Counted from the first letter of the stretch, positions 2,366 through 55,781 are shown. The stretch is DNA of 64,000 bases from a virus (IMGVR_UViG_3300035701_000002); one strand, 5' to 3'. Notes: generated by a model not told the origin, from the letters alone. Made by a program: numbers and translations.

Positions 2366-4360
2366 ATGTCCAGAAGAAGGAAAGTGCTAACGGCCGTCAC
2401 AGTAGTCCTGGTACTGGCCGCCTTCACGTGGATGTCACTCCCGTATGCGGTGAGGAGGGAGGTCAGAAGGAGGGCGGAGTCCAGAGGACTGAAGGCGGAG
2501 GTCGGGGACGTGAAAGTCCGGCCGGGGAGGATCGAGCTCCGGGACGTGAGAGTGTCGTCGGACCGGCTTCCGGTGAAGCCGTTCGTGATCGGAAAAGTGA
2601 CCGTGCTGACATCGTGGCTCGAGGCTCAGGAAGTAGAGGCGGACGGGGCGTCGCTGGAGATCGACGGGGACGCGGTAGACCTGGTCAAAAAGGTCCAGGA
2701 CATGAAGGGCAAGAGGGAGGGCGGAGGATCCGTGAGGGCGTCCGTGAAGAACTTCAGGATCACGTGGGCCGGCCCATGCTCCGGGTCCGGATCGGCGAGC
2801 GCGGAGGGAGTTTCAGCCTCGTCAGGAACACTGACCGCCGACTCGGTGAGCATATCGTGCTACGGGGTTTCGACAACCGCCCAGAACGTGTCCGCGGGGA
2901 AGGGGCAGGCGAACGCGAAGAGCGTGGAAGCCAAGTATGGTGGATACGTGCTGAGGGCGAGCGGGGTGACCGCAGGTCCGGACGAGAAAGACCTTTGGTC
3001 AAAGCCGTGGGCCAGAGCCGACTCGGCGACGCTGGAAGCGCACGGGGCGACGTTGGAGGCAAAGACAGTGAGGGCGTCGGCCGACGCCATCGAGAGGAGC
3101 GCGAAGGCGGGGGCCGGGACAGCAGTCTTGAAGTACGAAGGCCTTCAGGGCGACGTGCTGGCCGAGAACGTGGAGGTGGGGGCTTCCGGAAAGAAAGAGG
3201 GAGAGCTCGAGCTATCAGTGTCGACGAAGAGCCTCAGCGGCGTGTATAAGGCCGTGACCGGGGACGGCGTAACGGCCATGTCCCTGTCCGGGGGCGGGAC
3301 CATATCGTGGGGGAAGAACTACTCGAAGCCGTGGGGCGCGAGAGGGTGGAGGTTCGCGCTCGGAAGCGCCACAGCGTACGCCAAGGCTGAGGTCAGGGAG
3401 GACGGGTTCTCTGCGGAAGCCGCCCTCGGAGATCCGGGAGGTAGCGGAGCTGCGTGCAATGACCTGCTCACGTCCATCCCGAAGGGGATGGTCCCGAAGC
3501 TCGACGGCTTCGCCGCCGAGGGGCGCGTCCAGGCGGGCGTAAAGGTCGACATGAAAAAGGAGGCGGTCGTACAGGTGACCCTGAAGAACGGATGCAAGTT
3601 CGTCTCGTGGCCAGACAGCATGTCGCCGAAGTCATTGAAGCGAAAGTTCTCGAGGACCGTATACGGGGTGAGGGGAGAGCCCGTCGAGCTGGATTCGGGC
3701 CCCGGGACGAAGGACTGGGTTCCGTACCTGAGGATGTCAAGATTCCTGACAGCGGCCGTCCAGACGACGGAGGACCCGGGGTTCTTCAGGCACAAGGGCG
3801 TGGACGTCGGGGCGGTGGAGAACTCGATCAAGCAGGACATCGAGTCCGGGAAGTTCGTACGGGGGGCGAGCACGGTGACCATGCAGCTGGCGAAGAACCT
3901 GTGGCTCACGAGGTCCAAGACGATCTCGAGGAAAGTGCAGGAAGCGTTCCTCACAACGTACCTGGAGCAGGTTCTGACGAAGGAGGAGATACTCGAGCTC
4001 TACTTCAACATAGTGGAGTTCGGACCGATGCTGTACGGAGTAGGTCCGGCCTCAAGGAAGTACTTCGGGTCGCCTCCGGACGAACTGTCTCTCGGGCAGT
4101 CGTTGTTCCTGACGTCAGTCCTTCCGAGCCCGAAGGCGCAGTGGTTCGGACCTGACGGAAAGATTCAGGAGTCGAGGATGAAGTGGCTCCACGCCATCAT
4201 GGAGACAATGAGGAAAAGGAACCTGGTGTCGGAGGGCGAGCTTCAGGACGGACTTGCGGAGTGGCTGGTGCTAGGGAAGTCCGACCCTGACATCAGGGTT
4301 CCCGAGGCGGGGCCGGTTATCGTGAATCCGGGAGGGCTGGACCCGGACTGGGGACACTGA
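2366..4360 (+). CDS. membrane-anchored AsmA-like protein fused to a C-terminal GT51 peptidoglycan glycosyltransferase (transglycosylase) domain
   Basis: N-terminal TM segment VLTAVTVVLVLAAFTW is followed by an AsmA-like stretch (LKAEVGDVKVRPGRIELRDVRVSSDRLP...). The C-terminus carries GT51 motifs: EDPGFFRHKGVD, TVTMQLAKNLWL, and RKVQEAFLTTYLEQVLTKEEILELYFNIVEFG. The upstream 1916..2365 part of the listed ORF is Ser/Arg-rich and is taken to be non-coding overlap. Confidence 0.6.
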   Translation: MSRRRKVLTAVTVVLVLAAFTWMSLPYAVRREVRRRAESRGLKAEVGDVKVRPGRIELRDVRVSSDRLPVKPFVIGKVTVLTSWLEAQEVEADGASLEIDGDAVDLVKKVQDMKGKREGGGSVRASVKNFRITWAGPCSGSGSASAEGVSASSGTLTADSVSISCYGVSTTAQNVSAGKGQANAKSVEAKYGGYVLRASGVTAGPDEKDLWSKPWARADSATLEAHGATLEAKTVRASADAIERSAKAGAGTAVLKYEGLQGDVLAENVEVGASGKKEGELELSVSTKSLSGVYKAVTGDGVTAMSLSGGGTISWGKNYSKPWGARGWRFALGSATAYAKAEVREDGFSAEAALGDPGGSGAACNDLLTSIPKGMVPKLDGFAAEGRVQAGVKVDMKKEAVVQVTLKNGCKFVSWPDSMSPKSLKRKFSRTVYGVRGEPVELDSGPGTKDWVPYLRMSRFLTAAVQTTEDPGFFRHKGVDVGAVENSIKQDIESGKFVRGASTVTMQLAKNLWLTRSKTISRKVQEAFLTTYLEQVLTKEEILELYFNIVEFGPMLYGVGPASRKYFGSPPDELSLGQSLFLTSVLPSPKAQWFGPDGKIQESRMKWLHAIMETMRKRNLVSEGELQDGLAEWLVLGKSDPDIRVPEAGPVIVNPGGLDPDWGH

Positions 4361-4572
4361 TGAGGGTGTCCGCCAGGACCGGGCATCACTGGATGGTAAG
4401 GGTCCGGTTCATCGGGGATGGGGAGGAGTGGAACGTCGTCTACTGCGCCCGGTGCGGACACGAGATGAACATGAACTATCCGCCGCCGGACGACTGGCTG
4501 GACGTCCTGACGATGACGAAGATCCCTCCGTCGTGCGACGAAAACGCGGTCCTCAGGGTGATGGAGGACTAG
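4360..4572 (+). CDS. small zinc-ribbon protein, HDW/CxxC paralog family, C-terminal tail LRVMED
   Basis: 70 aa with ...GHHW...EEWNVVYCARCG...PSC... and tail AVLRVMED*. Its ATG overlaps the stop of the GT51 gene (ATGA). Confidence 0.5.
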   Translation: MRVSARTGHHWMVRVRFIGDGEEWNVVYCARCGHEMNMNYPPPDDWLDVLTMTKIPPSCDENAVLRVMED

Positions 4573-4853
4573 CGGGAGTAGTCGAGGACCCGGGCGGACG
4601 GGTCCGTCCCGGAGGCGACCCTGCCCATGGCGTCCTTGAAGGCCTTGCGGTCCATGACGTCCACCGGCGAGGCAATGGCGGGCGACAGCCGCCGGCCCCC
4701 GCCGCCAGGGATGCGGGCGGGCATGGCGGCGTCCTTGACCTGGAGGAGGAGGCGCTTCATCTCGGCGGCCACGGCGGCAACGCTCGGACGGCCGGACTCG
4801 TCGATCCCGTCGGCGAGAAGCCTGAGTCTTCGGGAGAGCTCGTCAGGGGTCAT
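4569..4853 (-). CDS. hypothetical protein (94 aa)
   Basis: ORF with normal composition, convergent with the 4360 gene. Confidence 0.4.
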   Translation of the reverse strand: MTPDELSRRLRLLADGIDESGRPSVAAVAAEMKRLLLQVKDAAMPARIPGGGGRRLSPAIASPVDVMDRKAFKDAMGRVASGTDPSARVLDYSR

Positions 4854-4868
4854 GAAGGACCGTACCCG

Positions 4869-5672
4869 TCATGAGTCGCCGGGAGGGGTGACGGGGCCGC
4901 CGATATACTCGGAGACGTCCACGCCCAAGGCGTGGGCGCCCGTGGCGAGCCTGACGGCCTCGGTCCGGGCGTCCTCCTTGGAGAGCCCGGCCTCGAGGCG
5001 AAGCCAGGCGTAGAGGACGAGCCACGCACCATCCGCATGGCCAAAGTAGTGATGGGCATAGATGCCTGGGGAGACAGTCTTCGCAGCCCCAACCGGGCCC
5101 ATGGCGAGGACGGAGCCGCGGAGGCCCACCCAAACGCGCGGAATCTCGAGCCCGGAGTCCGGGGACGTGGCCCACAAAATCGTCTGGCAGACGGTCTCGG
5201 CCTGCTCGGGGGTAGGCACGACGTACTTCCCTCCGGCGGCCCACGGGGCGCTCTGGATGACGTCCGTCCAGGGCCCGCCGGAGGGCGCGATCTTCGGGTC
5301 GTACGGGTTCACGGTCTCGACGCCCACGGACGGGCCGTTGTGCTGAGAGGCGTGCCACAGGAGGTCGGTCGCGAGGTCCCCGTGCTGGTATAGGGTCCCG
5401 TCCGCGTCCGCAATGAAGTGAACCCCGAGGCCCCTGCCGCCGGGGTTGGAGGCGGACTTCGGCTGAAGGACCTGGACGGTGCTCTTCCAGCTCCGCGTCA
5501 CCGTCTCATGGACGACGAACTCCGTGACCGGGGAGGTCCTCTTCTGGTTCGAGAACCTGTAGACGGAGGGGTCCAGGAAGTTCTTCACGGACACGCCGTC
5601 GGGCGGGGCCACGGGCTTTCCGTCCACGATCACCATCTCGGAATCGGAAAGATACGGGTTGTCGTCGGCCAT
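4869..5672 (-). CDS. N-acetylmuramoyl-L-alanine amidase (amidase_2 / PGRP / T7-lysozyme fold), endolysin candidate
   Basis: Motifs VVHETVT and GLGVHFIADADGTLYQHGDLATDLLWHASQHNGPSVGVETVN are present. The start is placed at internal Met MADDNPY (5672), because the upstream part of the listed 351-aa ORF is Ser/Gly/Pro-rich overlap. Confidence 0.7.
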   Translation of the reverse strand: MADDNPYLSDSEMVIVDGKPVAPPDGVSVKNFLDPSVYRFSNQKRTSPVTEFVVHETVTRSWKSTVQVLQPKSASNPGGRGLGVHFIADADGTLYQHGDLATDLLWHASQHNGPSVGVETVNPYDPKIAPSGGPWTDVIQSAPWAAGGKYVVPTPEQAETVCQTILWATSPDSGLEIPRVWVGLRGSVLAMGPVGAAKTVSPGIYAHHYFGHADGAWLVLYAWLRLEAGLSKEDARTEAVRLATGAHALGVDVSEYIGGPVTPPGDS

Positions 5673-5688
5673 GTCTGACCGTACCCGG

Positions 5689-6078
5689 TCATAGGCGGGC
5701 GACGAGCCTGGCAAACCGCTTCCTGAGATTCCTACGGGTACGCACCACGGCCCTGGGCCGGAGATCGTGCTCCCAGAGGACCCAGACGGTCCATCCGAGG
5801 CAGCGGAGCTCGCGGCGCGTCCTCCGGTCGCGAAGGACGTTCTTCCGGAGTTTGTCCTTCCAGAAGGCGACGTTGGACTTGGGCTTGCTCCCATGGAGAG
5901 GACAACAGTGCCAGAAGCAACCATCGATGAACAATGCCAGTCGGAGAGAGTAGACGACGACGTCGGGGGAGCCGGGGAGCGATGGGACGTTTAGGCGAAG
6001 ACGCCGCCCGGACAGCTCCCTCACTAGCTTTCGGAAGGCCACCTCGGGCTTGGTCCCGGAGGACCTGATCCGGGACAT
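5689..6078 (-). CDS. vsr: very-short-patch-repair-type (Vsr) DNA mismatch endonuclease
   Basis: MSRIRSSGTKPEVAFRKLV...LPGSPDVVVYSLRLALFIDGCFWHCCPLHGSKPKSNVAFWKDKLRKNVLRDRRTRRELRCLGWTVWVLWEHDL matches the Vsr family pattern. Start taken at Met 6078. Confidence 0.7.
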   Translation of the reverse strand: MSRIRSSGTKPEVAFRKLVRELSGRRLRLNVPSLPGSPDVVVYSLRLALFIDGCFWHCCPLHGSKPKSNVAFWKDKLRKNVLRDRRTRRELRCLGWTVWVLWEHDLRPRAVVRTRRNLRKRFARLVARL

Positions 6079-6147
6079 GATCTTGGAGCGTTTGCGCTTG
6101 GAGAAGACGTCCGTCACGAGGGTGAGCCTTTGGTAGAGTGATCGGGC

Positions 6148-6654
6148 ATGGCGTTCCTGGGAATAAGGGTACCCGCGGCCGCGGCGGCAGAACTGTCGTC
6201 CATCGCAGTGCCGGAAGGCAGGCGGCTCGAGCCCGGGGAGATGCACATCACACTCCTCTACCTGGGGAAGGACACGCCCCTGGTGTCGGCCCTTGGGGCC
6301 GTCATGGGATCGCACACGGTGGCCAGGGCCTGGAAGCCGTTCACGGTCCACGCCGCCCTCCTCACAAGCTTCCCCAGGAACCCGGACGACGGGGTCCCGG
6401 TGATCGTCCGCGTCGTATCGGAGGAACTCATGAAGTTCCGCGAGGAGGTACGCAGGGCGATGGACCGGATGTCAGTACCGTACTCGAACAAGTACCCCGA
6501 GTACAAGCCGCACGTGACGCTGACCTACGTGGACGAGGAGGGCGTAGCCCCGTCCAGGATCAGGCCCGTGTCGTGGACCGTGGACAGGATGACGGTCTGG
6601 GCCGGCGAGGACATGGACAGCGTCGTCTCGTCGGACGTATACCTGATGGGCTAG
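6148..6654 (+). CDS. 2H phosphoesterase (LigT / 2'-5' RNA ligase / cyclic phosphodiesterase superfamily)
   Basis: Two H-x-T-x motifs (HITL and HVTL) lie about 95 residues apart in a 168-aa protein. The gene is divergent from vsr. Confidence 0.65.
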   Translation: MAFLGIRVPAAAAAELSSIAVPEGRRLEPGEMHITLLYLGKDTPLVSALGAVMGSHTVARAWKPFTVHAALLTSFPRNPDDGVPVIVRVVSEELMKFREEVRRAMDRMSVPYSNKYPEYKPHVTLTYVDEEGVAPSRIRPVSWTVDRMTVWAGEDMDSVVSSDVYLMG

Positions 6655-6935
6655 CCGAGCATGACCTCGGCAACGGAGAGGCGGTCAAGGACGTCGTGCT
6701 CAGAGAGGCCGAAAAAGCAAAGCCTGCAAGGTCCGCCCGGGCGGGGCCAGTCCACGGTGTAGACGTTCTGTCCGCCGGCTTTGTCGAGGGCGACCTCCTC
6801 GCGGCCCTTGTTGACGGAGTCCAGGGTGGAGACGTCCATGGCGAGGTCCGCGAGTCCGACGACGGAATCGGGCGGGAGGGAGTCAAGGACCGCGGAGATC
6901 CTGACGGCAGGGTCAAGTCTACCCATCCTGGACAC
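6651..6935 (-). CDS. hypothetical protein (94 aa)
   Basis: ORF with normal composition. Confidence 0.4.
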   Translation of the reverse strand: MSRMGRLDPAVRISAVLDSLPPDSVVGLADLAMDVSTLDSVNKGREEVALDKAGGQNVYTVDWPRPGGPCRLCFFGLSEHDVLDRLSVAEVMLG

Positions 6936-6958: not shown

Positions 6959-7261
6959 ATGAAAGGGCTGATAGACAGAGCGCTGAGGCTGCTCATGGAC
7001 GGTCTTCGCGGAATGGCAGCGGGAAGCCAGAGGCGAATGGCAGCCAAGTCGATCGTGAAGGTCGAGGCGGACGGCGGGTACCTTCTCAAGTGCGGGTGCC
7101 TCGTGCACGTCAAGCCGACGGACCTGAGGAGGATGATGGAGAACTTCGGGCCCGAGATCGTCCTCGAGGTGGAGCTCGAGGTTGCGAGCAACCACGAGCA
7201 CGCAGGCGCTCCAGCAAGGCGCTCCCGGACGAGGAAGCCCGTGGGGAAGACCGACCCCTAG
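6959..7261 (+). CDS. hypothetical protein (100 aa)
   Basis: ORF with normal composition; short plus-strand island. Confidence 0.4.
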   Translation: MKGLIDRALRLLMDGLRGMAAGSQRRMAAKSIVKVEADGGYLLKCGCLVHVKPTDLRRMMENFGPEIVLEVELEVASNHEHAGAPARRSRTRKPVGKTDP

Positions 7262-7905
7262 TCGTCCATGATGTCCGACACGAGGCGCTCCCTCCAGCTC
7301 TGAAGGAGGTCGTCCTCGGACAGGACGTCGTGGCTAAGGTTCTCGCGGACGAAGCGCTCGAGCCTCTTCATCTGGGAGACGCGCTCCTTGGCGACGAACT
7401 CGGCGACGGCCTTCTCCACTATCGGACCGGAGGACGCGCGGGCCTCGGACACGGCGGCTTCGACGGCGGCGCTGAGGGCGGCCAGGGGCTCATTTCCGAC
7501 CATCTTGTTGAGGATCTCGAAGACGGCCTTCCTGGATACGCGCAGGGAGACGGTGGGCGTGAACGACTTCTCGAGGCGCTCGACGACGTTCCCGGCGAGA
7601 TGGTTCCATCCGGACGCCAGGAGGACCTTGCCTGTGGACCACAGCAGGACGGACGCGTTGTTCGTCACGACCGTCTGCAGGCGGTTGTCGTATCCGAGGG
7701 AGACCTTCACGGCGCAGTCCGGCCCGGCCACGCGCGAGAGAAGGAGCTCGCGGGCGTGAAACACGAACGAGGACTCGTGCCTCCGGACGTACTCGAGCGA
7801 GTCCTCATCCCCGCACATGACGGGGACGATCAGTCCGAACCGGAAGGAGAGCCTGGAGGCGAGCTGCGAGTCCAGGACCGATAGGAGGGAGGCCCGGGCG
7901 TCCAA
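7258..7905 (-). CDS. hypothetical protein (215 aa)
   Basis: ORF with normal composition; ends ...LVSDIMDD*. Confidence 0.5.
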   Translation of the reverse strand: MDARASLLSVLDSQLASRLSFRFGLIVPVMCGDEDSLEYVRRHESSFVFHARELLLSRVAGPDCAVKVSLGYDNRLQTVVTNNASVLLWSTGKVLLASGWNHLAGNVVERLEKSFTPTVSLRVSRKAVFEILNKMVGNEPLAALSAAVEAAVSEARASSGPIVEKAVAEFVAKERVSQMKRLERFVRENLSHDVLSEDDLLQSWRERLVSDIMDD

Positions 7906-7907
7906 TG

Positions 7908-8090
7908 TCAGGCCTTCTTCTTGTCGGGCACCTGCTGCACGGACCTGACGGACAGGAGGACCTCGGACAGACCCCGCTCTTCGAGAATCGCCCTGGCGCT
8001 GTCGAGCATGGCGCCGGCCCGACCGGACCTCATGTCAGCCTGAAAGGACGAGACGACCCCGTCCTTGGAGACCCTGATTTCATATTTCAT
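7908..8090 (-). CDS. hypothetical small protein (60 aa)
   Basis: Short ORF directly downstream of the tRNA; 1-nt overlap with the tRNA 3' end. Confidence 0.3.
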   Translation of the reverse strand: MKYEIRVSKDGVVSSFQADMRSGRAGAMLDSARAILEERGLSEVLLSVRSVQQVPDKKKA

Positions 8091-8163
8091 GGCTGGGGAA
8101 CTAGGATTCGAACCCAGATAGCCAGATCCAGAGACTGGCGTCCTGCCGTTAGACGATTCCCCA
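8090..8163 (-). tRNA. tRNA-Gln: tRNA-Gln (anticodon CUG), bacterial type with U1-A72, G73 and encoded CCA
   Basis: Reverse complement reads TGGGGAATCGTCTAACGGCAGGACGCCAGTCTCTGGATCTGGCTATCTGGGTTCGAATCCTAGTTCCCCAGCCA. This folds with a 7-bp acceptor stem, D stem GTCT/GGAC with G18G19, and anticodon loop CUCUGGA (U33, CUG). The T arm is CTGGG-TTCGAAT-CCTAG. Overall architecture resembles E. coli tRNA-Gln. Confidence 0.8.
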
Positions 8164-13318: not shown

Positions 13319-13498
13319 TCAGGATTTCATGATCTGGCGGACGACCTCGTCCATGCAGTCCGGCCGGGGGCGGCTCGAGTCGGGCGCACGAAAGCCGCAG
13401 ACCTGGCAGACCTCCTCCCAGTACGGCTTGCTCCCATAATGGTTGCGGACCGGCACCCAGACGTGGCCCTGAGGGTCCGGTCTTCGAGAATCGGGCAT
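13319..13498 (-). CDS. small zinc-ribbon protein (59 aa), HDW/CxxC paralog, tail VVRQIMKS
   Basis: Translated here by hand: MPDSRRPDPQGHVWVPVRNHYGSKPYWEEVCQVCGFRAPDSSRPRPDCMDEVVRQIMKS*. It is below the 60-aa cutoff of the ORF track. Confidence 0.45.
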   Translation of the reverse strand: MPDSRRPDPQGHVWVPVRNHYGSKPYWEEVCQVCGFRAPDSSRPRPDCMDEVVRQIMKS

Positions 13499-13945
13499 TC
13501 AGGATTCCATGACCTGCTTGACGGCCTTCACCCTGTCTCGGTACAGGGCGTCCGGGGCGAGAGAGTACTCGATCTCGTAGCAGTCCGGGAGCTTGGCCCA
13601 GAAGCGCTGGTTGCGGGCCGGCTTCTGGCCCTTCATCACCTTCCACGAAATGCTGTCGAAGTCGCTCCCGACCTGGAGCGCAGACTTGCTGAAGGTCCGG
13701 ATGTAGACGCGGTCGCACTCCAAGACAGAGCCCTTGGGCAAGGTCATCCTGAGGGACTTCAGCCTGCCGTACTGCGAACGGCCGGCCGCGTCCTTCTCGT
13801 ATCCGTCCCTCCACGGGTCGAACTTCGCTGGGACGAGCTTGTGCTCCTGGGCGAACTTGACGTTTCGCCTCTCGAGGTAGAGGTCGAACTCCCAGGCCTT
13901 CTCGAGGGTGATGCGGTCGCCGCACGCGGGGATGAACAGCTTCAT
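13499..13945 (-). CDS. hypothetical protein (148 aa) with C-terminal tail VKQVMES
   Basis: ORF with normal composition; ends ...RVKAVKQVMES*. Its start codon overlaps the stop of the upstream ORF (ATGA). Confidence 0.5.
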   Translation of the reverse strand: MKLFIPACGDRITLEKAWEFDLYLERRNVKFAQEHKLVPAKFDPWRDGYEKDAAGRSQYGRLKSLRMTLPKGSVLECDRVYIRTFSKSALQVGSDFDSISWKVMKGQKPARNQRFWAKLPDCYEIEYSLAPDALYRDRVKAVKQVMES

Positions 13946-14178
13946 GACTCCATGACCTCCAGGATGGCCTCACGGGCCAGATCGCCGAACAAGTGTTCCC
14001 CGAGCTTGAGGCACAGGGCCGCGACGCGGCGGAGCTCGGTCTGGAGTTCGGCGTCGGCGCGGAACTTCGACCTTCCCGACCGGAGCTTCCTCAGGAGGGT
14101 ACGCTGACGGACGGCCAGGTTCCGCCGCGTCTTGCGAAGACGGACGGCCTTCTTCCATTCCTCCTGGGTCGGCATCAT
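13942..14178 (-). CDS. hypothetical basic protein (78 aa) with C-terminal tail ILEVMES
   Basis: ORF ends ...AREAILEVMES*. Confidence 0.45.
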   Translation of the reverse strand: MMPTQEEWKKAVRLRKTRRNLAVRQRTLLRKLRSGRSKFRADAELQTELRRVAALCLKLGEHLFGDLAREAILEVMES

Positions 14179-15804: not shown

Positions 15805-16098
15805 TCATGTCTCCATGACCTGGCGAACACGCCCTTCGTCGCAGTCGTGCCGGTCGAGCTGCTCGGTCGGGTCCGGAACGATGACCTCGTCGTGGACGAA
15901 GTGGTCATATAGGACGGGCTCCGCGGTGCCGCACTCGGAGCACACCCAGAAGAGCTTCCCCTGGTTCCAAGGATGGTCCGGAGAGAACTGGGAGGCGGAC
16001 CGGGCGTGGAGCCGCTCCCGCTGGACGAAGTCCCACCGGCGCCCCCTCGAGTCCTCGTGGAAGCGCTCGTGGAAGCCCTTTCCGTTGACTTCTTTCAC
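15805..16098 (-). CDS. small zinc-ribbon protein (97 aa), HDW/CxxC paralog, tail RVRQVMET
   Basis: ...SPDHPWNQGKLFWVCSECG...HDC...RVRQVMET*. Confidence 0.5.
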   Translation of the reverse strand: MKEVNGKGFHERFHEDSRGRRWDFVQRERLHARSASQFSPDHPWNQGKLFWVCSECGTAEPVLYDHFVHDEVIVPDPTEQLDRHDCDEGRVRQVMET

Positions 16099-16805: not shown

Positions 16806-16831
16806 CGAAAGGAACTAGCCGGAGCTAGTTC
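16806..16831 (-). terminator. stem-loop immediately after the major capsid gene stop (GAACUAGC-UCCG-GCUAGUUC, then CUUUCG)
   Basis: Perfect 8-bp inverted repeat gaactagc/gctagttc at 16812-16831, overlapping the MCP stop codon. A second 9-bp inverted repeat tttcgaccc/gggtcgaaa lies at 16772-16810. Confidence 0.45.
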
Positions 16832-17720
16832 AGCGCGTCACGATGAGACGGACGAGACCGCGCGGGTTGTACGCGCCGATCCCGAGGTTCTCGAACATGC
16901 TGAATCCGATCGTCCTCTCCTCGGGGTTGTCCGCCGAGAGGACCGTGAGCTCCGTACGGACCGGGATCCGGCCGAAGTGCTCGGGCTCGCAGCAGACGTA
17001 GACGACGCCGGCGGGGACGAGGCGGCTGACGATGAACTGGGCGTTCCAGCCCGTCGCCATCATGCCCGTCTTCCAGAGGGTCGCCTGCGACTCGATGTCC
17101 AGCACGTCGCGGCCGAACTTGCGGATGTCCGCGTAGTCCGTCGCGTTCATGTAGACCCGAGCCACGCGGAGGTCGTGGCGCTCGATCTCGGCGAACGCGT
17201 CCGCGAGGACGGCCGCGGAGATCGGGGCGACGACCGGGATGTCCGGGTTCGTCCCGCCCGGAAGCGAGTCGAAGCCGTTCACCGCGATTGCGTCCATGAT
17301 GCTGAAGACGCGGTCGTCCTCGGCAGCCTGGATCTGGGCCTTGCCCAGGTCCTGCATGCGCTTCAGGAGGTCGTAGCGACGCTCCTTGATCTGCGTGAGG
17401 GGCGCCTTGGGCAGGGCGGCGATCTCGAAGAGGGGGAAGATCACGCGCCGCGGCTTCATGACCGCGGTGATGCTCTCGCCTTCCTCGCCGATCACGTACG
17501 CCGTGACGTCGGGGTCCTTGTCGTAGATCGGGAGCGCGCCGTCCGGGAGCTGCTCGACGAGGAAGGTCTTGCGACCGACCGACGAGTAGTCCCTGCGCTC
17601 ACGAAGCGGCTGGATCATCGAGGCGGCGAGGCGCTTGCGGCCCGCCGAGGTCCCGATGAACTTGTCGACCATCTGCTCTTTGATCGTGTTGTCCACGACC
17701 TGTACGCCGAAGGGATTCAT
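16830..17720 (-). CDS. major capsid protein, HK97 fold
   Basis: 296 aa with the typical phage major-capsid layout. Sits in the head module and is followed by a long structured non-coding region. Confidence 0.75.
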   Translation of the reverse strand: MNPFGVQVVDNTIKEQMVDKFIGTSAGRKRLAASMIQPLRERRDYSSVGRKTFLVEQLPDGALPIYDKDPDVTAYVIGEEGESITAVMKPRRVIFPLFEIAALPKAPLTQIKERRYDLLKRMQDLGKAQIQAAEDDRVFSIMDAIAVNGFDSLPGGTNPDIPVVAPISAAVLADAFAEIERHDLRVARVYMNATDYADIRKFGRDVLDIESQATLWKTGMMATGWNAQFIVSRLVPAGVVYVCCEPEHFGRIPVRTELTVLSADNPEERTIGFSMFENLGIGAYNPRGLVRLIVTR

Positions 17721-20008: not shown

Positions 20009-21628
20009 TTAACAATTGGAGATCGAGGAAATCCGGCCCTTCCAGGTCAGAAATCCTCTTTCTGAGGCGGAGAGATCCCTTCCGAGTCTCGACCTGCACG
20101 CGGCAAGGTACGAGGTCTCGCTCGGGAAGTTCTTCATGGCGCCGACGTTCATTGCGACCTTGTAGAGGGCGGAATTGTACTCCCGTCCCCTGCAGCGGTC
20201 CTCGATCCATGAAAGGACTATCAAGTCCCTCGGGGTCATGCCGGCCTTCCTCACGCCTGCGGCGCCGTGCTGGTGCACGACCTTCCACGCGGAGGTGGCC
20301 CAGCGGATCAGTCTCTCGTTCCCGGGGAACTTCGACCTGAGCCTGCGCCCGAACTCCTCGGAGGAGCGGACGATACTGTCGTTCGCGGACTCGAGGTTAA
20401 CAGGCGACGAGACCGTCCCGACGTCCTCGGGCTTCGGAGCGAGCTTCTCGCCGAGCTTCTCGACCATGATGGTCATGAGCTGCTCTTGGGCCTTCTCGAG
20501 GAGCTCGTCGAGCTTGTCGGACTTGGGCTTCGATCCGGCGTCGGACTGTCCGCCCTGATCCTGTCCGCCCTGATCCTGTCCGCCCTGGTCGCCGCCCTGA
20601 TCAGATTGATCTTGACTCTGACCCGCGCCTTGATCCTGTCCGAAGAGATCTTCCTGGCCCTGGCCCTGGCCCTGGCCCCCAGCCTGATCCTGGCCCCCAG
20701 CCTGATCCTGCCCCTGGTCGGCTTGAGCCTTGCGCGTGGATGCGGCCTTCTTGACGCCGTCCATCTCGGGAATGGAGCTACGGAGGATCTGGACCGAGCG
20801 CGACCTGTCCATCTGTGCCGCGTACTGACTGGAGTCGGGGTTCAGAATGTTCCTACGGACGGCCCCGCGGAATGCCGGATTCCTGACCCAGCTGGCCTCG
20901 ATGAACTGGTTGGAGTTAGGGACGGAGACGTGCCCGATGACCTCGGACAGCGGATGCTCCACGCCGTCCTCGTCGGAGAACTTCGAACCCTTACCGTCGT
21001 ACTGGACGCACGGGCAGAGCTGGGAGTCGTCGGACGCGACGTTCCCGCACTTGGTGCAGATGGTGAAGAGGCTGATGCACCCCATGGACAGGCCGGTGAT
21101 CGCGCCCGTGAGGATGTCCGACACGAGCTGATTGTGCTTGCGGTCGGTGGCGACGAGGATGTCGATGTAGCAGCTCTTGCCGAGATCGCGGGCGATAGCG
21201 TCGACGATGAAGCCCTTGGAGAGCTCCGGGAGCTGGATGTGCTCGAGGTAGTTGTGAGCGCCGATGAAGGTGCGGTAGCTCGAGAGGAGCAGAGAGCGCT
21301 CCCATGCGTCGCCGTTGTTGTTGATGATGTCGTGGCAGTCGGGGACGATGCGGAAGTCCGGCCAGCGTGCGTCGATCTGGACGCCCCGGTTCATCGTCCT
21401 GCCGGTCTTCGACCCCTTCGGGGCGTAGCAGTCGACGGACGCGACGATCGTAGCGTGCGAGAGAAGGTACTGCTTCGGATCGCACTTGCGGAGGATCGTC
21501 TTCGCGGTACGGGCGACGAAGTCCTTGGGGACCGCGCCCTCGTTCTGGCCGCGGAGCTCCTCCATCCATTCGTCGAACGCAATGTTGGTGCGCTCAACGA
21601 TGGCGCTGGCATACCGCTTTGTGGCCAT
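20009..21628 (-). CDS. hypothetical head-module protein (539 aa) with GQDQ repeats
   Basis: Long ORF with normal composition and an internal (GQDQ)n low-complexity tract. Confidence 0.55.
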   Translation of the reverse strand: MATKRYASAIVERTNIAFDEWMEELRGQNEGAVPKDFVARTAKTILRKCDPKQYLLSHATIVASVDCYAPKGSKTGRTMNRGVQIDARWPDFRIVPDCHDIINNNGDAWERSLLLSSYRTFIGAHNYLEHIQLPELSKGFIVDAIARDLGKSCYIDILVATDRKHNQLVSDILTGAITGLSMGCISLFTICTKCGNVASDDSQLCPCVQYDGKGSKFSDEDGVEHPLSEVIGHVSVPNSNQFIEASWVRNPAFRGAVRRNILNPDSSQYAAQMDRSRSVQILRSSIPEMDGVKKAASTRKAQADQGQDQAGGQDQAGGQGQGQGQEDLFGQDQGAGQSQDQSDQGGDQGGQDQGGQDQGGQSDAGSKPKSDKLDELLEKAQEQLMTIMVEKLGEKLAPKPEDVGTVSSPVNLESANDSIVRSSEEFGRRLRSKFPGNERLIRWATSAWKVVHQHGAAGVRKAGMTPRDLIVLSWIEDRCRGREYNSALYKVAMNVGAMKNFPSETSYLAACRSRLGRDLSASERGFLTWKGRISSISNC

Positions 21629-21707
21629 GAATCCTCTGATGGATAAGGAGCATAGAAACTCTGAAGCTCCGGCCGTAAGTCACGGGAGGACGGACGTATG
21701 CCGGGGC

Positions 21708-22262
21708 ATGGCGGACAAGATAACTGAGGCCATCGGACGTGTCAGGGTGAAGAAGGTCGAGGTCGTCCTTTCGGAGGGGAAGGTCCTGCCGAGAGTCCCG
21801 ACGTCAGGCCTCTGGCCGAGGGTCACCCTGGAGCTGGACGGGACGGAGCGGACGGTTCCGCTCACATGGTGGGCTGACGAAAAGAAGGCGGCCAGCGACC
21901 CGCTCAAGGCCATCATGGAAGGGATCGGGGGCGACATCCTCAGAATGGCCGGCGGAAGGACTACAGCCTCGATGCCGAGGGGCCGGAGGCCGGCGCTCGA
22001 GTACGCGGTGTCGGAGGCGAACTCGAAGATCCGAAGAGCGGTCGACCGCGCCTCCCAGACAAAGGGAGGGGTCGGGGAGAGGCACAGGAAGGCGCAGAAG
22101 AGGGCCCTGAAGAAGAGAGTGCTGGAGAAGCTGCGCGGACAGTTCGAGAGCCTGATCCGGATGGAGAGGCTCGAACTCGAGGATCTGGGCGGGGCGGACG
22201 TGGGCCGCGCGTGGGACGACATCCTGAAGATGAAGGCCGTCCGCCACGTGATGGAGACCTAA
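21708..22262 (+). CDS. hypothetical protein (184 aa) with C-terminal tail AVRHVMET
   Basis: Internal Met MADKITEAIG of ORF 21486..22262. Single plus-strand gene inside the head module. Confidence 0.45.
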   Translation: MADKITEAIGRVRVKKVEVVLSEGKVLPRVPTSGLWPRVTLELDGTERTVPLTWWADEKKAASDPLKAIMEGIGGDILRMAGGRTTASMPRGRRPALEYAVSEANSKIRRAVDRASQTKGGVGERHRKAQKRALKKRVLEKLRGQFESLIRMERLELEDLGGADVGRAWDDILKMKAVRHVMET

Positions 22263-26146: not shown

Positions 26147-26368
26147 GTGTTCGGAAGACGAAAAGAGAGTCCGGGTCAGAAGGCCCGGAGGAAATCGAAG
26201 GCCTTTGAGAGGGCTCTCGGAATGAGGCCGCACGACTGGACACCAGTCGTCAAGGACGGGACTACGTGGGTCTGGCGGTGTACACGGTGCGCAGCACGGT
26301 GTGGAAAGCCATCAGAGACGCCGGGGACGTGCGGAGAAGAAGTAGTCCGGTACGTGACGGAGGTCTAG
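26147..26368 (+). CDS. small zinc-ribbon protein (73 aa; possible start at 26222), HDW/CxxC paralog
   Basis: ...RPHDWTPVVKDGTTWVWRCTRCAARCG...GTCGEEVVRYVTEV*. Very similar to 29077. Confidence 0.45.
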   Translation: MFGRRKESPGQKARRKSKAFERALGMRPHDWTPVVKDGTTWVWRCTRCAARCGKPSETPGTCGEEVVRYVTEV

Positions 26369-26565
26369 GACTCCTGGACGTCAAGGACGGCATGAAGGTC
26401 GTCCTCCATGGACTCGACATGAGCCTGGAGGTCCTGGTAAACGGTCTTACAGACAGGACAGAGCGAGTCGAGCCTACGCCGGCCTCTCTTGACGTCCGAG
26501 AGCCTGATCGTCGGATTCGCCGCCAGTTCGAACATCGGGACTTCGACCCTGCGGCCCTGGATCAT
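26365..26565 (-). CDS. small CxxC protein (66 aa), tail LDVQES
   Basis: ...LCPVCKTVYQDLQAHVESMEDDLHAVLDVQES*. Confidence 0.35.
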   Translation of the reverse strand: MIQGRRVEVPMFELAANPTIRLSDVKRGRRRLDSLCPVCKTVYQDLQAHVESMEDDLHAVLDVQES

Positions 26566-28364
26566 TCCTCGTCCTTGTCGAACCGGTCGTCTTCCTTTTC
26601 GGTCATCTTCAGGCCTGCGGACTCGGCGATGCGCTTCAGGACGTCCGTCTTCTCGACCGCCTCGTCCCCGGCCTTCGCCAGGACGGTCTTGAGGAACTCG
26701 TTGAACGTCGAGTCGTTCGGCGTGAACATGTCCTTCTTGAGCTGGGAAAGGGCGTCGTCCGAGTCGATGTTCAGAAGATCGAGGATGAAGGAGATCGGCA
26801 GGGATCCCTTCTGGTACAGGTTGAACATGAAGTCCTGCAGCTCAGTGTTGTCGCGGAGCGCGAGGCGCGTAAACTGGAGCTTCGGATACAGAAGGACACG
26901 GTTGCCGAATTCGTCCTCCTCCCAGAATCCCTTCTTCTCCGCCACCGGGGCGAAGAGCTGATCCTCGACGAACTGGGCGATGCTCTCCCGGTAGAGGAGG
27001 TACATCGTGTTCATGACGTCGAGATGAATGCGCTCGCCGGAGTAGGAGGACTCGCCCGTGAGCATTGACTCCGTAATCCGGAGGCCGATGAACAAGAGCT
27101 TGTTGGTGATGTCGTATTCTGTCGAGAGGTCGAGGAGACGGTCACGCGAGCCGATCTCGTCCCAGTGGACCTCGAAGTTCGTGACGATGGAGAAGTCCGG
27201 ATCGATGAGCGCCTGGTCGATCTGATCCCGAAGGTTGTCGGTGTCCGGCTCGGACATCTTGTCCGCCCAGACAATGCGCTTCGGGGTCATCGCGCGGGAG
27301 GCGATGGACGTCTGGGCTTGACGGAGCTTGTCCTGATAGAGGAGAGTCCTCAGGCAGCGTTCGAGAAGAGAAATCCCGCGGTCGTCGTACGCCGACTTCT
27401 TGTGCGAAAGATGGTAGCAGAAGGACGAGCAGAGGAAGTCGTCGTACGGGTTCGTGTTGAGCGGAATCGGCTGGCCGTTCAGGAGCTGCTCACGGATCTG
27501 CTCCGGGATGTCCTCGGCGATGCGGGCGGCCTCCTGATCCCCCTGCTCCTGCGCCTTCATGACGACGATCCTGTCCTTCTCGGACGGGATGAGCTCCATC
27601 TTGACGCGGTTCGTGTACTGGAAGACCTCGAGCTTCACCTGCTCCGGAGGGAGGATCTGGAGGCGCTCCCATCCGCGGTAGTGGGAGGCAACGTACTCGC
27701 GGATCGCCTTGGCCTGCTCGCTCTCGGGCTTCGGCTCCCTCTTGCGCTCCACGCGCTTCCGGGCACGGCCGGCATAGTCCACCTCGGCGATCTCTTCCTC
27801 CTTGACGTCGGAAAGCATGTCCTCGTCGATGTCGGACGTGAGGTCATGATCCTCGCAGAAGATGAAGCAATTCCCGTGGAGCCAGTACTCATGCGTCGCG
27901 TCGTAGAGAGTCTGGAAGAGGCGGACCCTCTTGCACATCTGCTCATAGAAGTGCAAGATCTGCTTGTTCCGCCTCAGGTCCTTCCCCTTGGGGAGGGACA
28001 GACGGATCTTCGACATCGGCACGTCGGTGTGGAAGTCGATGGCCGCGCCGACGATCGGGTGCGTCGTGTACCAGAACCGGAAGAGCTCGCGCTTCTCGCG
28101 CTCGGACTGGGGGAGCTCGAGGAAGTCTGTGGAGAGCTGGGGGCTGTAGAAGGCGGAGTCGGCGTTGGCCGTGGCGCCGCCGCCGGCGTTCCCGAAGTTG
28201 CCGCCGAAGGCCGCAACGCGTATGGACTGGGCTTGCTCTCTGCGGGCAAGCTTCTCCAGCTTCGTCATGCGGTTCTTCGGACGAGCCTGTTCATCAACGC
28301 GGACGACAGGCAGGTCGTTCTTGACCTGCATAACCGGGCGTACGCCGACCTTCTTCTTAGTCAT
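26562..28364 (-). CDS. portal protein (600 aa)
   Basis: Size, acidic C-terminus, and position between the large terminase and the head genes. Confidence 0.6.
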   Translation of the reverse strand: MTKKKVGVRPVMQVKNDLPVVRVDEQARPKNRMTKLEKLARREQAQSIRVAAFGGNFGNAGGGATANADSAFYSPQLSTDFLELPQSEREKRELFRFWYTTHPIVGAAIDFHTDVPMSKIRLSLPKGKDLRRNKQILHFYEQMCKRVRLFQTLYDATHEYWLHGNCFIFCEDHDLTSDIDEDMLSDVKEEEIAEVDYAGRARKRVERKREPKPESEQAKAIREYVASHYRGWERLQILPPEQVKLEVFQYTNRVKMELIPSEKDRIVVMKAQEQGDQEAARIAEDIPEQIREQLLNGQPIPLNTNPYDDFLCSSFCYHLSHKKSAYDDRGISLLERCLRTLLYQDKLRQAQTSIASRAMTPKRIVWADKMSEPDTDNLRDQIDQALIDPDFSIVTNFEVHWDEIGSRDRLLDLSTEYDITNKLLFIGLRITESMLTGESSYSGERIHLDVMNTMYLLYRESIAQFVEDQLFAPVAEKKGFWEEDEFGNRVLLYPKLQFTRLALRDNTELQDFMFNLYQKGSLPISFILDLLNIDSDDALSQLKKDMFTPNDSTFNEFLKTVLAKAGDEAVEKTDVLKRIAESAGLKMTEKEDDRFDKDEE

Positions 28365-29076: not shown

Positions 29077-29310
29077 TCAGGACTCTTGAACGTGCTGGAC
29101 GTAAACGTCGGCGCACGTCAGGCCTTTCTCCCCGGGGGCGGGACCGCTAACCCCTCGCTTCTGGGAGAAGGGCTTGGGGAGAACCACGAGCATGTGGGCG
29201 GGAGGCTGAACCTTGCTGATGCGGACGCACTGGCAGCGAGAGCACACCCAGGTCGTGTCCTTGGTCGGAAAGGGCCTAGTCCAATCGTGATCCGCGGGCC
29301 GGAGACTCAA
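29077..29310 (-). CDS. small zinc-ribbon protein (77 aa), HDW/CxxC paralog, tail VQHVQES
   Basis: ...ADHDWTRPFPTKDTTWVCSRCQC...LTC...VYVQHVQES*. Confidence 0.5.
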   Translation of the reverse strand: MSLRPADHDWTRPFPTKDTTWVCSRCQCVRISKVQPPAHMLVVLPKPFSQKRGVSGPAPGEKGLTCADVYVQHVQES

Positions 29311-37544: not shown

Positions 37545-38066
37545 ATGGCGCTATGGGATTGGGAGGGCGGGGATCCGAAGTGGTCGTTCGTGGTGGACAC
37601 GGACTCGTACGCCGGAAACTTCGAGCGGGAGATGAGCAGCTACATAGTCGGGCAGTGCGACGAGTACGGGGACCACCGCGGAGGCCCGTACAAGAAGATG
37701 TACATGAAGGACTTCAAGGGCAAGGACCCCTTCGAGAACCTGGTTGAGGAACGGGTCAGCGACCCGGGGGACGACGGCATTATGCGCGCCCCGATGGACC
37801 TAGCCCCGACGCCCGGATATGAGAGCAACGGCGCGGGGGGCACCCTCTATTTTGCGTCGTCATGTCCAAAACATCCGGCCTACAACTCGGTGGCGATCTT
37901 CCTTAGCAGAAGGCCGACGGCGAAGGAGCTCACGATGCTGGCCGACAGGGCCAGGAGGTTCGCCGGGGCGACGAAGATTTTCGGGGAGACGCTGAAGGTC
38001 ATCGGATGCAGGCTGGTCAAGGAGACGGTCCTGCTGGAGTCCGAGGACGTTGTTGCCCCGGAGTAG
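37545..38066 (+). CDS. hypothetical protein (173 aa)
   Basis: ORF with normal composition; plus-strand island. Confidence 0.5.
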   Translation: MALWDWEGGDPKWSFVVDTDSYAGNFEREMSSYIVGQCDEYGDHRGGPYKKMYMKDFKGKDPFENLVEERVSDPGDDGIMRAPMDLAPTPGYESNGAGGTLYFASSCPKHPAYNSVAIFLSRRPTAKELTMLADRARRFAGATKIFGETLKVIGCRLVKETVLLESEDVVAPE

Positions 38067-38322
38067 GACCGCCGGCCCCAGGAGAGAGGCCCACGACTGG
38101 GAGCACGGATGGAAGGACGTGCCGTCCGGGAAGATATACCCGTATGACCACGGACTTCCGTTCGAGGTGGCCCAAGACAGGCTCGTGAGATCCTGGAGGT
38201 GCAGGAGGTGCGGCGCATCGGAGAGTTCGAGCCGCAGGCCGTCCGTGTACAAAAAGGTCTACGCCGGAATGAAGAACCTTCTGTGCGACGAGTACGTGAC
38301 CTGGCAGGTCATGGAGTCATAG
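38050..38322 (+). CDS. small zinc-ribbon protein (90 aa), HDW/CxxC paralog, tail VTWQVMES
   Basis: ...EAHDWEHGW...SWRCRRCG...LLC...VTWQVMES*. Confidence 0.5.
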   Translation: MLPRSRTAGPRREAHDWEHGWKDVPSGKIYPYDHGLPFEVAQDRLVRSWRCRRCGASESSSRRPSVYKKVYAGMKNLLCDEYVTWQVMES

Positions 38323-38325: not shown

Positions 38326-39102
38326 TCACTCGATCGGGAGTATCTGAGCGTCCCCGCGGTCCCGGAACTGAGGGAGCGAGACTTCGTGAAGGATGTTGAA
38401 GTGCTTGTCCGAGATGGCGAAGAACACGGTGTAGTACTTTCCGTACCTCGAATTCTCGATCGAATCCTCGAGGTCCTTCTCCGCCCTCTCGACCTCCTGG
38501 GAGTCCCTGCCCTGCTTCCGGAGCATATGAGCTCGGACCAGGAGCTCCTTCGCCTCCTCGGCGATGAGGTCCTTCACCTTCTGGAGCGCCCGGAAGAACC
38601 TGTGGCGGACGCGTCCCTGCGTCAGGTTCATCTGCTTGGCTATCTCCGACTGACAGGTGGTCTCATACATCCTCCACAGGATCTCACGGTCTTGATCCGA
38701 GAACTTCGGGCCGAGCTCCAGGTCGAACTGCTCCTGGTCGAGCTCCGGGATTGTCCTCAGAAACTGGATGCGCTTGATGCCGCGGTGCAGCCTGTACGAG
38801 ACGGCCGCCTGCGTGATGCGGAACAGCTTGGCTATCTGCTCCTGCTTCATTTTGTCGTGGTGGTAGAGGCGTATGAGGTCAGCCTCGCGTGGCGGGATGC
38901 GATCCAGATAGTGCTCGATGGACCCGAAGTCGAGGGACTGGCCGTCGGCGTTCAGCTCCTCTTCGGCGTCCGGAGCGAGACGGTTCTCGATCAGGTCCTC
39001 CAGGTCCTGTTCGGAATCCGGGTCATAGCCGAGACGATTCTCGTTGCTGAACCTGGACGAAAGTGACGACGGATCCTGAATGAGGATGTGAGATATAGAC
39101 AT
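38326..39102 (-). CDS. transcription factor with two tandem sigma-70 region-4-like HTH domains (no region 2)
   Basis: ADLIRLYHHDKMKQEQIAKLFRITQAAVSYRLHRGIKRI and REILWRMYETTCQSEIAKQMNLTQGRVRHRFFRALQKVKDL both match the sigma-70 r4 / ECF r4 pattern. Confidence 0.55.
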   Translation of the reverse strand: MSISHILIQDPSSLSSRFSNENRLGYDPDSEQDLEDLIENRLAPDAEEELNADGQSLDFGSIEHYLDRIPPREADLIRLYHHDKMKQEQIAKLFRITQAAVSYRLHRGIKRIQFLRTIPELDQEQFDLELGPKFSDQDREILWRMYETTCQSEIAKQMNLTQGRVRHRFFRALQKVKDLIAEEAKELLVRAHMLRKQGRDSQEVERAEKDLEDSIENSRYGKYYTVFFAISDKHFNILHEVSLPQFRDRGDAQILPIE

Positions 39103-52623: not shown

Positions 52624-52644
52624 AGTCCGCAGGGGCCTAGTTGA

Positions 52645-53463: not shown

Positions 53464-53499
53464 GGTCCGAGTTTACACGGACCGGACGAAGACTTTCGG

Positions 53500-54015: not shown

Positions 54016-54064
54016 GATGGCTCCTGGACCTCTACCGGGCCGGTGACAAAGGGCCTATGAGGGA

Positions 54065-55201: not shown

Positions 55202-55437
55202 CCCTCGGTCTTCACGACCATCTTCTCGATGGCCTCGATCGCGTCGAACGAGATACACGTGAGGCGCACCTTCTTGCCGGCCAGGGACTTGAGGAGCTCC
55301 TGCGTGGAGAAGGCCTTCCCGTCGTCGTCCACGACCACATACTCGCCGGTGGCCCCGTCCAGCACAACCTCGCCGTCGATGATGTTCCCGGCGTCGTACC
55401 CATAGAGGTTCCTATCCCGGGCGTTGTCGTAGTCCAT
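55198..55437 (-). CDS. hypothetical small protein (79 aa)
   Basis: Internal Met MDYDNARDR of ORF 55198..55710; the N-terminal Arg/Gly/Pro stretch is rejected. Confidence 0.35.
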   Translation of the reverse strand: MDYDNARDRNLYGYDAGNIIDGEVVLDGATGEYVVVDDDGKAFSTQELLKSLAGKKVRLTCISFDAIEAIEKMVVKTEG

Positions 55438-55454
55438 GGCCGGACAGTACGGGG

Positions 55455-55781
55455 TCAGCTCGCCATGACGAGCTCGGCCTCGAGGTCCCTGGCCTTGTCG
55501 CAGTCGTCGGCCAGAACCCCGTGGTAGCCCTTGTCGAAGCCGTGCCCCGTCCCGGGGGCGCCGGCGGGGATGGTCCTGTCGGCTAGCTCCTCCTTGCTGA
55601 ACTCGCTGACGTCGTCCATCCATGCCATGGCCACGGTGAGGCGCTTCTGGAAGTCGGACCACCCGTCCGGGAAGAAGACGCGCTTCCGGCACCCGGAGCA
55701 GCGGTGCCACTCCCCGGGCTTACCGGAGCTGCTCCTGGGGTCGGTGCCGCGCTCCTCGAACTTCCAGTCGTGCTCCGTCAT
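55455..55781 (-). CDS. small zinc-ribbon protein (108 aa), HDW/CxxC paralog, tail ELVMAS
   Basis: MTEHDWKFEERGTDPRSSSGKPGEWHRCSGC...DDC...EAELVMAS*. Confidence 0.5.
   Translation of the reverse strand: MTEHDWKFEERGTDPRSSSGKPGEWHRCSGCRKRVFFPDGWSDFQKRLTVAMAWMDDVSEFSKEELADRTIPAGAPGTGHGFDKGYHGVLADDCDKARDLEAELVMAS

Follow-up and report, generated by a model that had tools for sequence, protein, structure and literature searches.

Why does a huge phage encode at least seven very small cysteine-containing proteins that resemble one another and are scattered through its genome? The question is raised by IMGVR_UViG_3300035701_000002, a metagenomic huge-phage fragment with a GC content of 63%; the whole stretch of 64,000 nucleotides that was analysed is referred to below as the window. 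An initial annotation, made from the sequence alone, had described seven small open reading frames (ORFs) that share an H-x-W-like motif, a W-x-CxxC motif and a later Cys, and had regarded them as zinc-ribbon paralogs. These seven ORFs are real genes, and they make up a family of mini-proteins of about 48-108 amino acids (aa) that had not been described before. All seven also end alike, in C-[DE]-E-x-V-x-x-V-M-E-[STD] followed directly by the stop codon, a feature that the annotation had missed. This tail is a modular C-terminal element, specific to one clade of huge phages (190-445 kb), and the "family of seven" represents a single subclass within a far larger tagged set.

The seven members are denoted m1 to m7. 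In the list, E values for the tail come from a profile hidden Markov model (HMM) of the tail, those marked core-only come from the remainder of the protein, and GC3 is the GC content at third codon positions.

m1: 4360..4572, plus strand, 70 aa; knuckle member; tail SCDENAVLRVMED; GC3 0.90; tail HMM E=1e-4
m2: 13319..13498, minus strand, 59 aa; tail DCMDEVVRQIMKS; tail HMM E=0.012; database protein P0005
m3: 15805..16098, minus strand, 97 aa; tail HDCDEGRVRQVMET; extra conserved N-terminal segment FHERFHxDSxGRxWxF
m4: 26147..26368, plus strand; degenerate tail VTEV; core-only E=5e-5; tail HMM E=0.95
m5: 29077..29310, minus strand, 77 aa; tail TCADVYVQHVQES; core-only E=5e-6
m6: 38050..38322, plus strand, about 89-90 aa; tail LCDEYVTWQVMES; tail HMM E=3e-5; ortholog P0033
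m7: 55455..55781, minus strand, 108 aa; long insert; degenerate tail AELVMAS

Evidence for a family of mini-proteins

Spurious ORFs are frequent at 63% GC, so coding status and family membership were tested formally, using the 1,069 ORFs of the window that span at least 30 aa from stop to stop. The seven ORFs were confirmed at the positions listed, with lengths of 70, 59, 97, 73, 77, 90 and 108 aa, and their translations contain the motifs that had been reported: HHW, HVW, HPW and four times HDW, followed by W-x(0-4)-C-x-x-C and, further on, another Cys. In a MAFFT alignment the motif positions aligned with one another, giving six invariant columns (H, W, W, C, C, C), and the family HMM recovered all seven members and nothing else in the window (E ≤ 1e-13; next ORF 0.19). 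When each member was omitted from the model in turn, it ranked above all non-family ORFs, with E values from 2e-5 to 0.017. GC3 was 0.78-0.95, indicating a gene-like frame, in every case save m4 (0.66). Six of the seven were found as called proteins in public assemblies, the exception again being m4, which was absent among called database proteins.

Two details of the initial annotation fared differently. The spacings it gave, 10-20 residues from the first motif to the second and 15-30 from there to the last Cys, were too narrow: H-x-W is separated from the knuckle by 6-32 residues, and CxxC from the last Cys by about 14 to more than 60. The dispersal that it had reported was borne out, with the paralogs lying on both strands and in several modules, next to portal and terminase, ribonucleotide reductase (RNR) and transglycosylase genes; m4 and m5 are found on either side of the portal gene, beside the terminase.

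The family extends to other phages. A tail-stripped profile trained on the window members recovered 43 ORFs from related phages, with E values down to 4e-10; the strict tail stands at the end of 30 of these, and the remainder mostly have a close variant of it. An alignment of 26 sequences from several phages showed that Met1, His, Trp and the three Cys were invariant, that a Pro about 10 residues past CxxC was nearly so, and that His-x-Trp usually fell inside the first eight residues. When the last 12 residues of the window members were stripped, only m4 and m5 were individually significant (E about 1e-5), and the others were marginal (E 0.03-0.5); six of the seven still ranked above all non-family ORFs. 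Stripping the tail weakens the similarity of the cores, which indicates that much of the "family" signal sits in the tail. Word-indexed database searches with family alignments returned 17 and 6 matches and are too insensitive to size the family. Two loci only were found in a viral contig scan, and when metagenome contigs were scanned with the alignment of m3 orthologs, no locus was confirmed.

The ATG of m1 overlaps the stop of the upstream gene for an 814-aa Transgly protein, and the m1 protein is identical to database protein P0002. Full-length orthologs of m3 have 57-78% identity, with 31 invariant columns. The TTG start of m5 and the stop of the gene for the terminase large subunit overlap, and the m5 ortholog P0031 is 60% identical. 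The class II RNR gene is immediately followed by m7, which keeps this position in a related phage (L001); the ratio of nonsynonymous to synonymous substitution rates (dN/dS) of m7 is about 0.40. The true start of m4 is probably an internal ATG at 26222, which would give a protein of 48 aa beginning MRPHDWTPVV. A scan for promoters and terminators near m4 and m5 gave no excess over shuffle expectation.

In one IMG/VR contig (L008, 4428..4870, plus strand) the m3 ortholog is split across two overlapping frames, which points to a frameshift or a sequencing error, or else to a pseudogene. The stop of m4 overlaps the stop of an opposite-strand tail gene at 26365..26565 by 4 nt (26365..26368), with the two tail ends facing each other; the degeneracy of the m4 tail is perhaps due to the constraint of this stop-stop overlap.

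The C-terminal tail in the window

Beyond the seven, the tail was first spotted in the gene preceding m2, which ends ...KAVKQVMES. A tail-only search identified four more window ORFs in which the tail is present without the H-x-W, W-x-CxxC and late-Cys core; these are given first below, followed by a candidate.

13499..13945, minus strand, 148 aa: tail-only; ends LYRDRVKAVKQVMES; widely conserved huge-phage family
13942..14178, minus strand, 78 aa: tail-only; ends AREAILEVMES; without CxxC knuckle; tail HMM E=0.014
21486..22262, plus strand: tail-only; ends KMKAVRHVMET; head module; tail HMM E=9e-4
26365..26565, minus strand, 66 aa: tail gene, LCPVCKTVYQ...LHAVLDVQES; one CxxC, no H-x-W; tail HMM E=0.022
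7258..7905, minus strand: candidate tail gene, RERLVSDIMDD; external tail HMM E=0.024; GC3 0.85; no Pfam domain

The true start of the gene at 21486..22262 is probably Met 21627 or 21708, since its 5' part overlaps the protease gene. The gene at 26365..26565 lies directly downstream of the portal gene.

In the six-frame ORFs of the window, which total 109,775 residues, VME[ST] occurs six times, and five of the six occurrences are exactly C-terminal. An externally trained tail HMM matched 10 window ORFs at E ≤ 0.024, and the best match among 9,748 ORF ends of a control phage had an E value of 4.

Three tail genes stand in tandem on the minus strand at 13319..14178, in the order 78 aa, 148 aa and m2, and their junctions overlap or abut (TCATGA in one case, TGA followed directly by ATG in the other). 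A single CxxC is present in the ORF at 6651..6935 (minus strand), whose end, GGPCRLCFFGLSEHDVLDRLSVAEVMLG, is tail-like but degenerate (tail HMM E=0.46); judged by this ending, the ORF may be a member that has decayed or diverged.

The tail in related huge phages

Homologs of the 148-aa protein form more than 166 clusters, some of them on contigs of up to 445 kb, and the end of this family, YRDRVK-x-[VIL]-[KR]-x-V-[MHQL]-E-[SGAT], is conserved to about 50% identity. The 20 kb neighbourhoods of four homologs from different phages (L019 to L022, GC 47-69%) were searched with the expression [VI][MHLQ][ED][STAG]$, and the expectation was taken from the frequency of the motif anywhere within ORFs. 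The observed and expected numbers of tail ends were 9 and 0.68 in the window, 19 and 0.49 in L019, 24 and 0.56 in L020, 21 and 0.50 in L021, and 10 and 0.21 in L022. In other words, there was a 13- to 48-fold enrichment at C-termini in the window and the four loci. The negative control, phage LR745208, in the whole 485 kb of which no family member, no tail and no 148-aa family member was found, gave 3 observed against 5.1 expected and showed no enrichment.

The consensus of 144 external tails was [C/L]-[DE]-[E/L]-x-[ILV]-V-[RKA]-x-V-M-E-S. Val occupies position -7, which played no part in selecting the tails, in 97 of the 144. The CxxC plus tail-Cys arrangement was found in 28% of external tails, and the median length of the external tail proteins was 80 aa. 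A pattern scan of IMG/VR gave several matches each in genomes of 436 kb (IMGVR_UViG_3300032782_000001), 427 kb (3300028920_000001), 393 kb (3300012980_000004) and 193 kb. In the 436 kb genome, of which 109 kb (about a quarter) was covered, at least 80 ORFs end in the tail; 50 of these 80 are in one contiguous block of 41 kb, and 24 are of the Zn-knuckle type.

L022 is a Logan contig (SRR21677119) with a GC content of 69%, and all 10 of its tails read V-L-[ED]-S, with the Leu encoded by CTG, CTC and CTT. This concerted change from Met to Leu is compatible with co-evolution of the tails with one partner. The final Ser is encoded by TCA in five of the 10 tails even in this 69% GC genome.

The loci L019 to L022 and the block of the 436 kb genome (31374..72596) consist of long same-strand arrays of genes for proteins of 60-80 aa, about half of which end in TCA-TGA with the next ATG overlapping the stop. 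In L001, a 70-aa ORF with 13 Cys that ends SVIEHVMES (2223..2435, plus strand) was uncalled in the source assembly. Its neighbours are the ligase gene and, on the other side, an 85-aa gene coming after the m7 ortholog; at the syntenic place the window has no gene.

Conservation of the tail as a peptide

Within the window, the tail codons vary: Val is encoded by GTC, GTG or GTT, Ile by ATC, Glu by GAG or GAA, and the last residue by TCC, TCA, ACA, ACC or AGC. Stops of all three kinds are used, and the DNA 3' of the stop is unrelated between tail genes. In the related loci the tail Ser is encoded by TCN and AGY alike. This synonymous variation, together with the mixed stops and the unconserved downstream DNA, indicates that conservation acts on the peptide.

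The proteins that carry the tail differ from one another. They include proteins with the Zn-knuckle, Cys-free helical proteins, proteins with the 148-aa domain, and proteins of up to 276 aa. A distant homolog of the 148-aa family in the cultured Xanthomonas phage XaC1 (XaC1_167; L140, 6001..6327) has the body of the family, stops where that body ends, and has no tail. Seven proteins with transmembrane-like segments also have the tail. In most of these seven a basic stretch precedes the tail, which by the positive-inside rule would place the tail on the cytoplasmic side of the membrane.

Another homolog of the 148-aa family, in LR745206 (L141, 9968..10627), an uncultured phage of 635 kb with 29% GC, has a long extension ending YLRDYKIQKIME; no other tail genes were found near this homolog.

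Core architecture and the predicted metal site

The core runs from Met-x(1-20)-His-x-Trp into what is predicted to be a short beta-hairpin; this holds the rubredoxin-like knuckle, [W/F]-x-Cys-x-x-Cys-Gly, and is followed by the Pro about 10 residues on and by a linker that varies. The third Cys comes next, at the start of a predicted C-terminal alpha-helix. The AlphaFold2 (AF2) model of m5 (predicted local distance difference test score, pLDDT, 82.5; predicted template modelling score, pTM, 0.69) has strands at residues 20-23 and 29-31 around Cys23 and Cys26, and in it the tail forms a helix at 66-76 that starts at the third Cys, Cys66. The model of m3 has a pLDDT of 74.6, and its tail residues are low, with a pLDDT of 49. 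Most likely, to judge from the conserved residues, the invariant His and the three Cys hold one Zn, and this ion would tie the knuckle and the helix to the N-terminus.

The term "zinc ribbon" was too specific for these proteins, because they have one CxxC knuckle, and the other candidate ligands are the N-terminal His and the lone Cys at the start of the helix. Classical zinc ribbons and rubredoxin knuckles (L37ae, S27ae, RpoP/Rpb12, TFIIE) resemble the family in having W-x-C-x-x-C-G in a beta-hairpin, a likeness that is seen in the AF2 model of m5 only, but they have two CxxC or CxxH knuckles and four ligands. Treble-clef or C1-like sites are perhaps closer in spirit, as the seven have an N-terminal His and a Cys at the N-terminus of a predicted helix as candidate ligands.

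The earlier statement that the proteins match no named domain held in Pfam, PHROG, NCBIfam and PADLOC, where all scores were below threshold, and fold searches gave no significant match. The best Pfam matches were PF14803 and PF09297, at about 15 bits against a cut-off of about 25, and in one member only. In a profile search of the PDB, the W-x-C-x-x-C-G segment matched generic zinc ribbons and rubredoxins at sub-significant levels (E 0.04-1). The tail-only proteins likewise had no significant match in the libraries searched (Pfam, PHROGs, NCBIfam, PADLOC, PDB profiles). A deep profile search of 1.84 billion representatives returned 18 matches; besides orthologs these included three, to C2H2 or zinc-ribbon repeat arrays, that were similar in the knuckle only and were rejected as unrelated. 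None of the domain and structure libraries searched contains an equivalent of the knuckle-plus-helix module with one His and three Cys. Nothing relevant was found in the literature, whether for the motif or for C-terminal motifs that jumbo-phage proteins have in common. The family is new, and the tag pattern is strong and without a description in the searchable literature.

Homing endonucleases of the HNH and GIY-YIG types were also considered and rejected, as there is no nuclease Pfam match and m7 is syntenic at the RNR gene. No profile match to anti-defence or defence proteins was found with PADLOC or the Acr families of Pfam.

The nearest parallel to the multiplication of the family is in Bacillus phage G, for which Iyer et al. 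2021 (PMC7824862) described a lineage-specific zinc-ribbon expansion of about 35 copies and suggested that the proteins act as transcription factors or bind DNA. The two cases are alike in that paralogs of a tiny Cys-based metal module (in the present case, a predicted one) have multiplied in a jumbo phage. They differ in that the seven have one CxxC, a His and a lone Cys instead of two knuckles, and in that their family has its C-terminal tail in common with proteins that are not of the Zn type. In a tblastn search of 50,697 phage records with m5 and one external member, the best E value was 0.7 and phage G was unmatched.

A possible role for the tail as a recognition tag

Because selection acts on the peptide, its place at the C-terminus is nearly strict, and the bodies that carry it are unrelated, the tail is proposed to be a recognition tag. 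The explanation that we consider best as a whole, with a probability of roughly 0.55, is that the seven are metal-pinned mini-proteins within a clade-wide set of proteins that bear such a tag. The tail would be a shared, modular signal at the extreme C-terminus, and one common partner would read it in the cytoplasm of the infected cell; recognition by this partner is something that we infer. The outcome of the reading would be docking, sorting or timed turnover, while the variable N-terminal bodies would give the proteins their individual activities. The seven would then form one cargo class, in which the helix of the tag is integrated into the putative metal site of one His and three Cys.

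Short peptides at the C-termini of unrelated proteins are well known from PTS1 (-SKL), KDEL, ssrA (-LAA), the EEVD of Hsp70 and Hsp90, and the cargo-loading peptides of encapsulins. The tail is like these in being a short peptide at the extreme C-terminus of many unrelated proteins, but its sequence, V-M-E-S after an amphipathic acidic and hydrophobic helix, matches none of them, and it is encoded by a clade of phages. By analogy, the tail might be a virus-encoded counterpart of PTS1, KDEL or ssrA, marking a large share of the small proteins of the clade, and a single receptor would deliver the tagged proteins to one destination or destroy them on schedule, with the seven as a cargo class; we offer this narrower version only tentatively.

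Several observations weigh against a recognition tag or limit how far the evidence for it can be taken. Among the roughly 40 window proteins that were scanned with Pfam, there is no obvious TPR, PDZ or AAA+ protease candidate for the partner. In the m5 model the tail is a well-packed helix that begins with a putative ligand of the metal, and in the Zn subclass the tail may therefore be purely structural, and both m4 and m7 keep the core despite degenerate tails. The change from Met to Leu in L022 could stem from GC pressure (ATG to CTN, at 69% GC). The counts of tail genes are biased upward where loci were found by means of a DNA pattern; only L019 to L022 are unbiased in this respect, yet each of them is centred on one tail-bearing gene. 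As for the metal site, the His of H-x-W is replaced in several m3 orthologs, in which other conserved His residues are present (HDEV, H-D-C).

Most genes of huge phages are small and have no assigned function, and a 12-residue signature on dozens of proteins per genome would be an organising principle among them. Should the tail indeed direct the sorting or the timed degradation of proteins, bacterial viruses would have their first address code at the scale of a proteome, and engineering would gain a portable tag. The tail also provides an experimental handle for finding the reader, be it a receptor, a protease or a compartment.

Alternative explanations

The tail proteins could instead be one fast-diverging superfamily, descended from a single small ancestor, in which the tail is the best-conserved structural helix and has no external partner. 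The confident helix of the m5 model, anchored at Cys66, fits this explanation, as do the CxxC plus tail-Cys arrangement in 28% of external tails and the frequent occurrence of tail genes in tandem arrays of 60-80 aa genes, which is typical of paralog expansion. It is made unlikely by the presence of the tail on clearly distinct bodies, namely the 148-aa family with its tail-less homolog in XaC1, proteins with transmembrane segments, Cys-free proteins, and proteins of 200-276 aa. Packing of a helix also explains poorly why the polar E-S is kept at the very end and why the terminal place is strict, and the m3 model, in which the tail has a pLDDT of 49, does not share the confidence of the m5 model.

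The initial annotation had suggested that the seven may be regulators, host-takeover proteins or "injected proteins"; in line with the last of these, the tail could be a signal that sends small proteins into the prohead, to be packaged and ejected into the host. The cargo peptides of encapsulins, which are C-terminal, provide one model for such targeting. Four of the window tail genes are within the head module, among the protease, portal and terminase genes. Further precedents for terminal peptides that send phage proteins to a common destination come from T4, with its N-terminal capsid targeting sequence, from SPN3US, for whose protease a C-terminal propeptide has been proposed, and from the protease of HK97 (PMC7411985). 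The T4 sequence, however, is N-terminal and cleaved off by the prohead protease, while the element of the window is C-terminal and the N-termini share Met-x(n)-His-x-Trp at most, in the Zn subclass. The HK97 and SPN3US signals sit on the protease, whereas neither the protease nor the candidate capsid gene of the window has a tail. The presence of at least 80 tail proteins in a quarter of one genome far exceeds the known sets of capsid cargo, and in related phages most tail genes are located in arrays of small genes away from recognisable structural modules. Finally, the transmembrane-like tail proteins, with their tails predicted to be cytoplasmic, argue against injection as a general role. 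We regard capsid targeting as distinctly unlikely.

We regard it as very unlikely that the last 12 or so residues act within the ribosome, modulating termination from the exit tunnel and coupling it to translation of the next cistron. About 12 residues do correspond to the tunnel segment nearest the peptidyl-transferase centre, as in arrest peptides, and about half of the tail genes end in TCA-TGA with an ATGA overlap, even at 69% GC; two of the window tail genes are directly coupled in this manner. But four of the 11 clear tail genes of the window (4572+, 22262+, 26368+ and 38322+) end convergently and have no downstream cistron, and stop codons of all three kinds are used. A genome-wide switch from Met to Leu would be unexpected if the reader were the conserved ribosome, and AF2 predicts a folded role for the helix.

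That VMES is merely the chance translation of a DNA or RNA motif (the boundary of a recombination cassette, a Shine-Dalgarno sequence or a promoter) is hardly credible and is largely refuted by the codon analysis: GGAG does lie inside ATG-GAG and the motif is placed at gene ends in tight arrays, but third codon positions are free, Ser has TCN as well as AGY codons, Val (GTN) and Ile (ATH) occur at the same position, nothing is conserved past the stop, hydrophobic residues are kept at -7 and -8 with helical spacing, and the pattern holds in genomes of 47-69% GC.

Other features of the window

No close relatives among sequenced phages were found by megablast with 20 kb of the window as the query. 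The nearest terminases are those of the uncultured 485 kb phage LR745208 (43% identity) and of a 309 kb Acidobacteria phage (27%), and the public assemblies that have proteins identical to those of the window are up to 203 kb long. Genes with assigned positions include the following, and the tRNA is listed with them.

1916..4360, plus strand: 814-aa Transgly protein (family-51 peptidoglycan glycosyltransferase, E=7e-45)
8090..8163, minus strand: tRNA-Gln (anticodon CTG), the sole tRNA of the window
16830..17720, minus strand: HK97-type capsid protein, weak match
20009..21628, minus strand: head protease
26562..28364, minus strand: portal
29307..31253, minus strand: terminase large subunit

The window also encodes a clamp loader, an amidase, a collagen-repeat protein, a 5'-3' exonuclease, a DnaG-type primase, a RecD2-like helicase, a class II RNR, a VWA protein and an NAD-dependent ligase. 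To our knowledge, the Transgly domain is unusual in phages; an Amidase_2 gene (4869..5924, minus strand) is located near the Transgly gene and m1. Convergent with m6 is a gene for a 258-aa protein (38326..39102, minus strand) in which two sigma-70 region 4 domains were detected and other sigma regions were not. The 168-aa protein encoded at 6148..6654 (plus strand) matches the 2'-5' RNA ligase or LigT (2H phosphoesterase) superfamily, and it also matches the Acb1 family, which acts against the cyclic-oligonucleotide-based anti-phage signalling system (anti-CBASS), with an E value of 2.7e-6 that just misses the Pfam cut-off. Judged by these matches, it is possibly a counter-defence gene whose product would degrade cyclic nucleotides.

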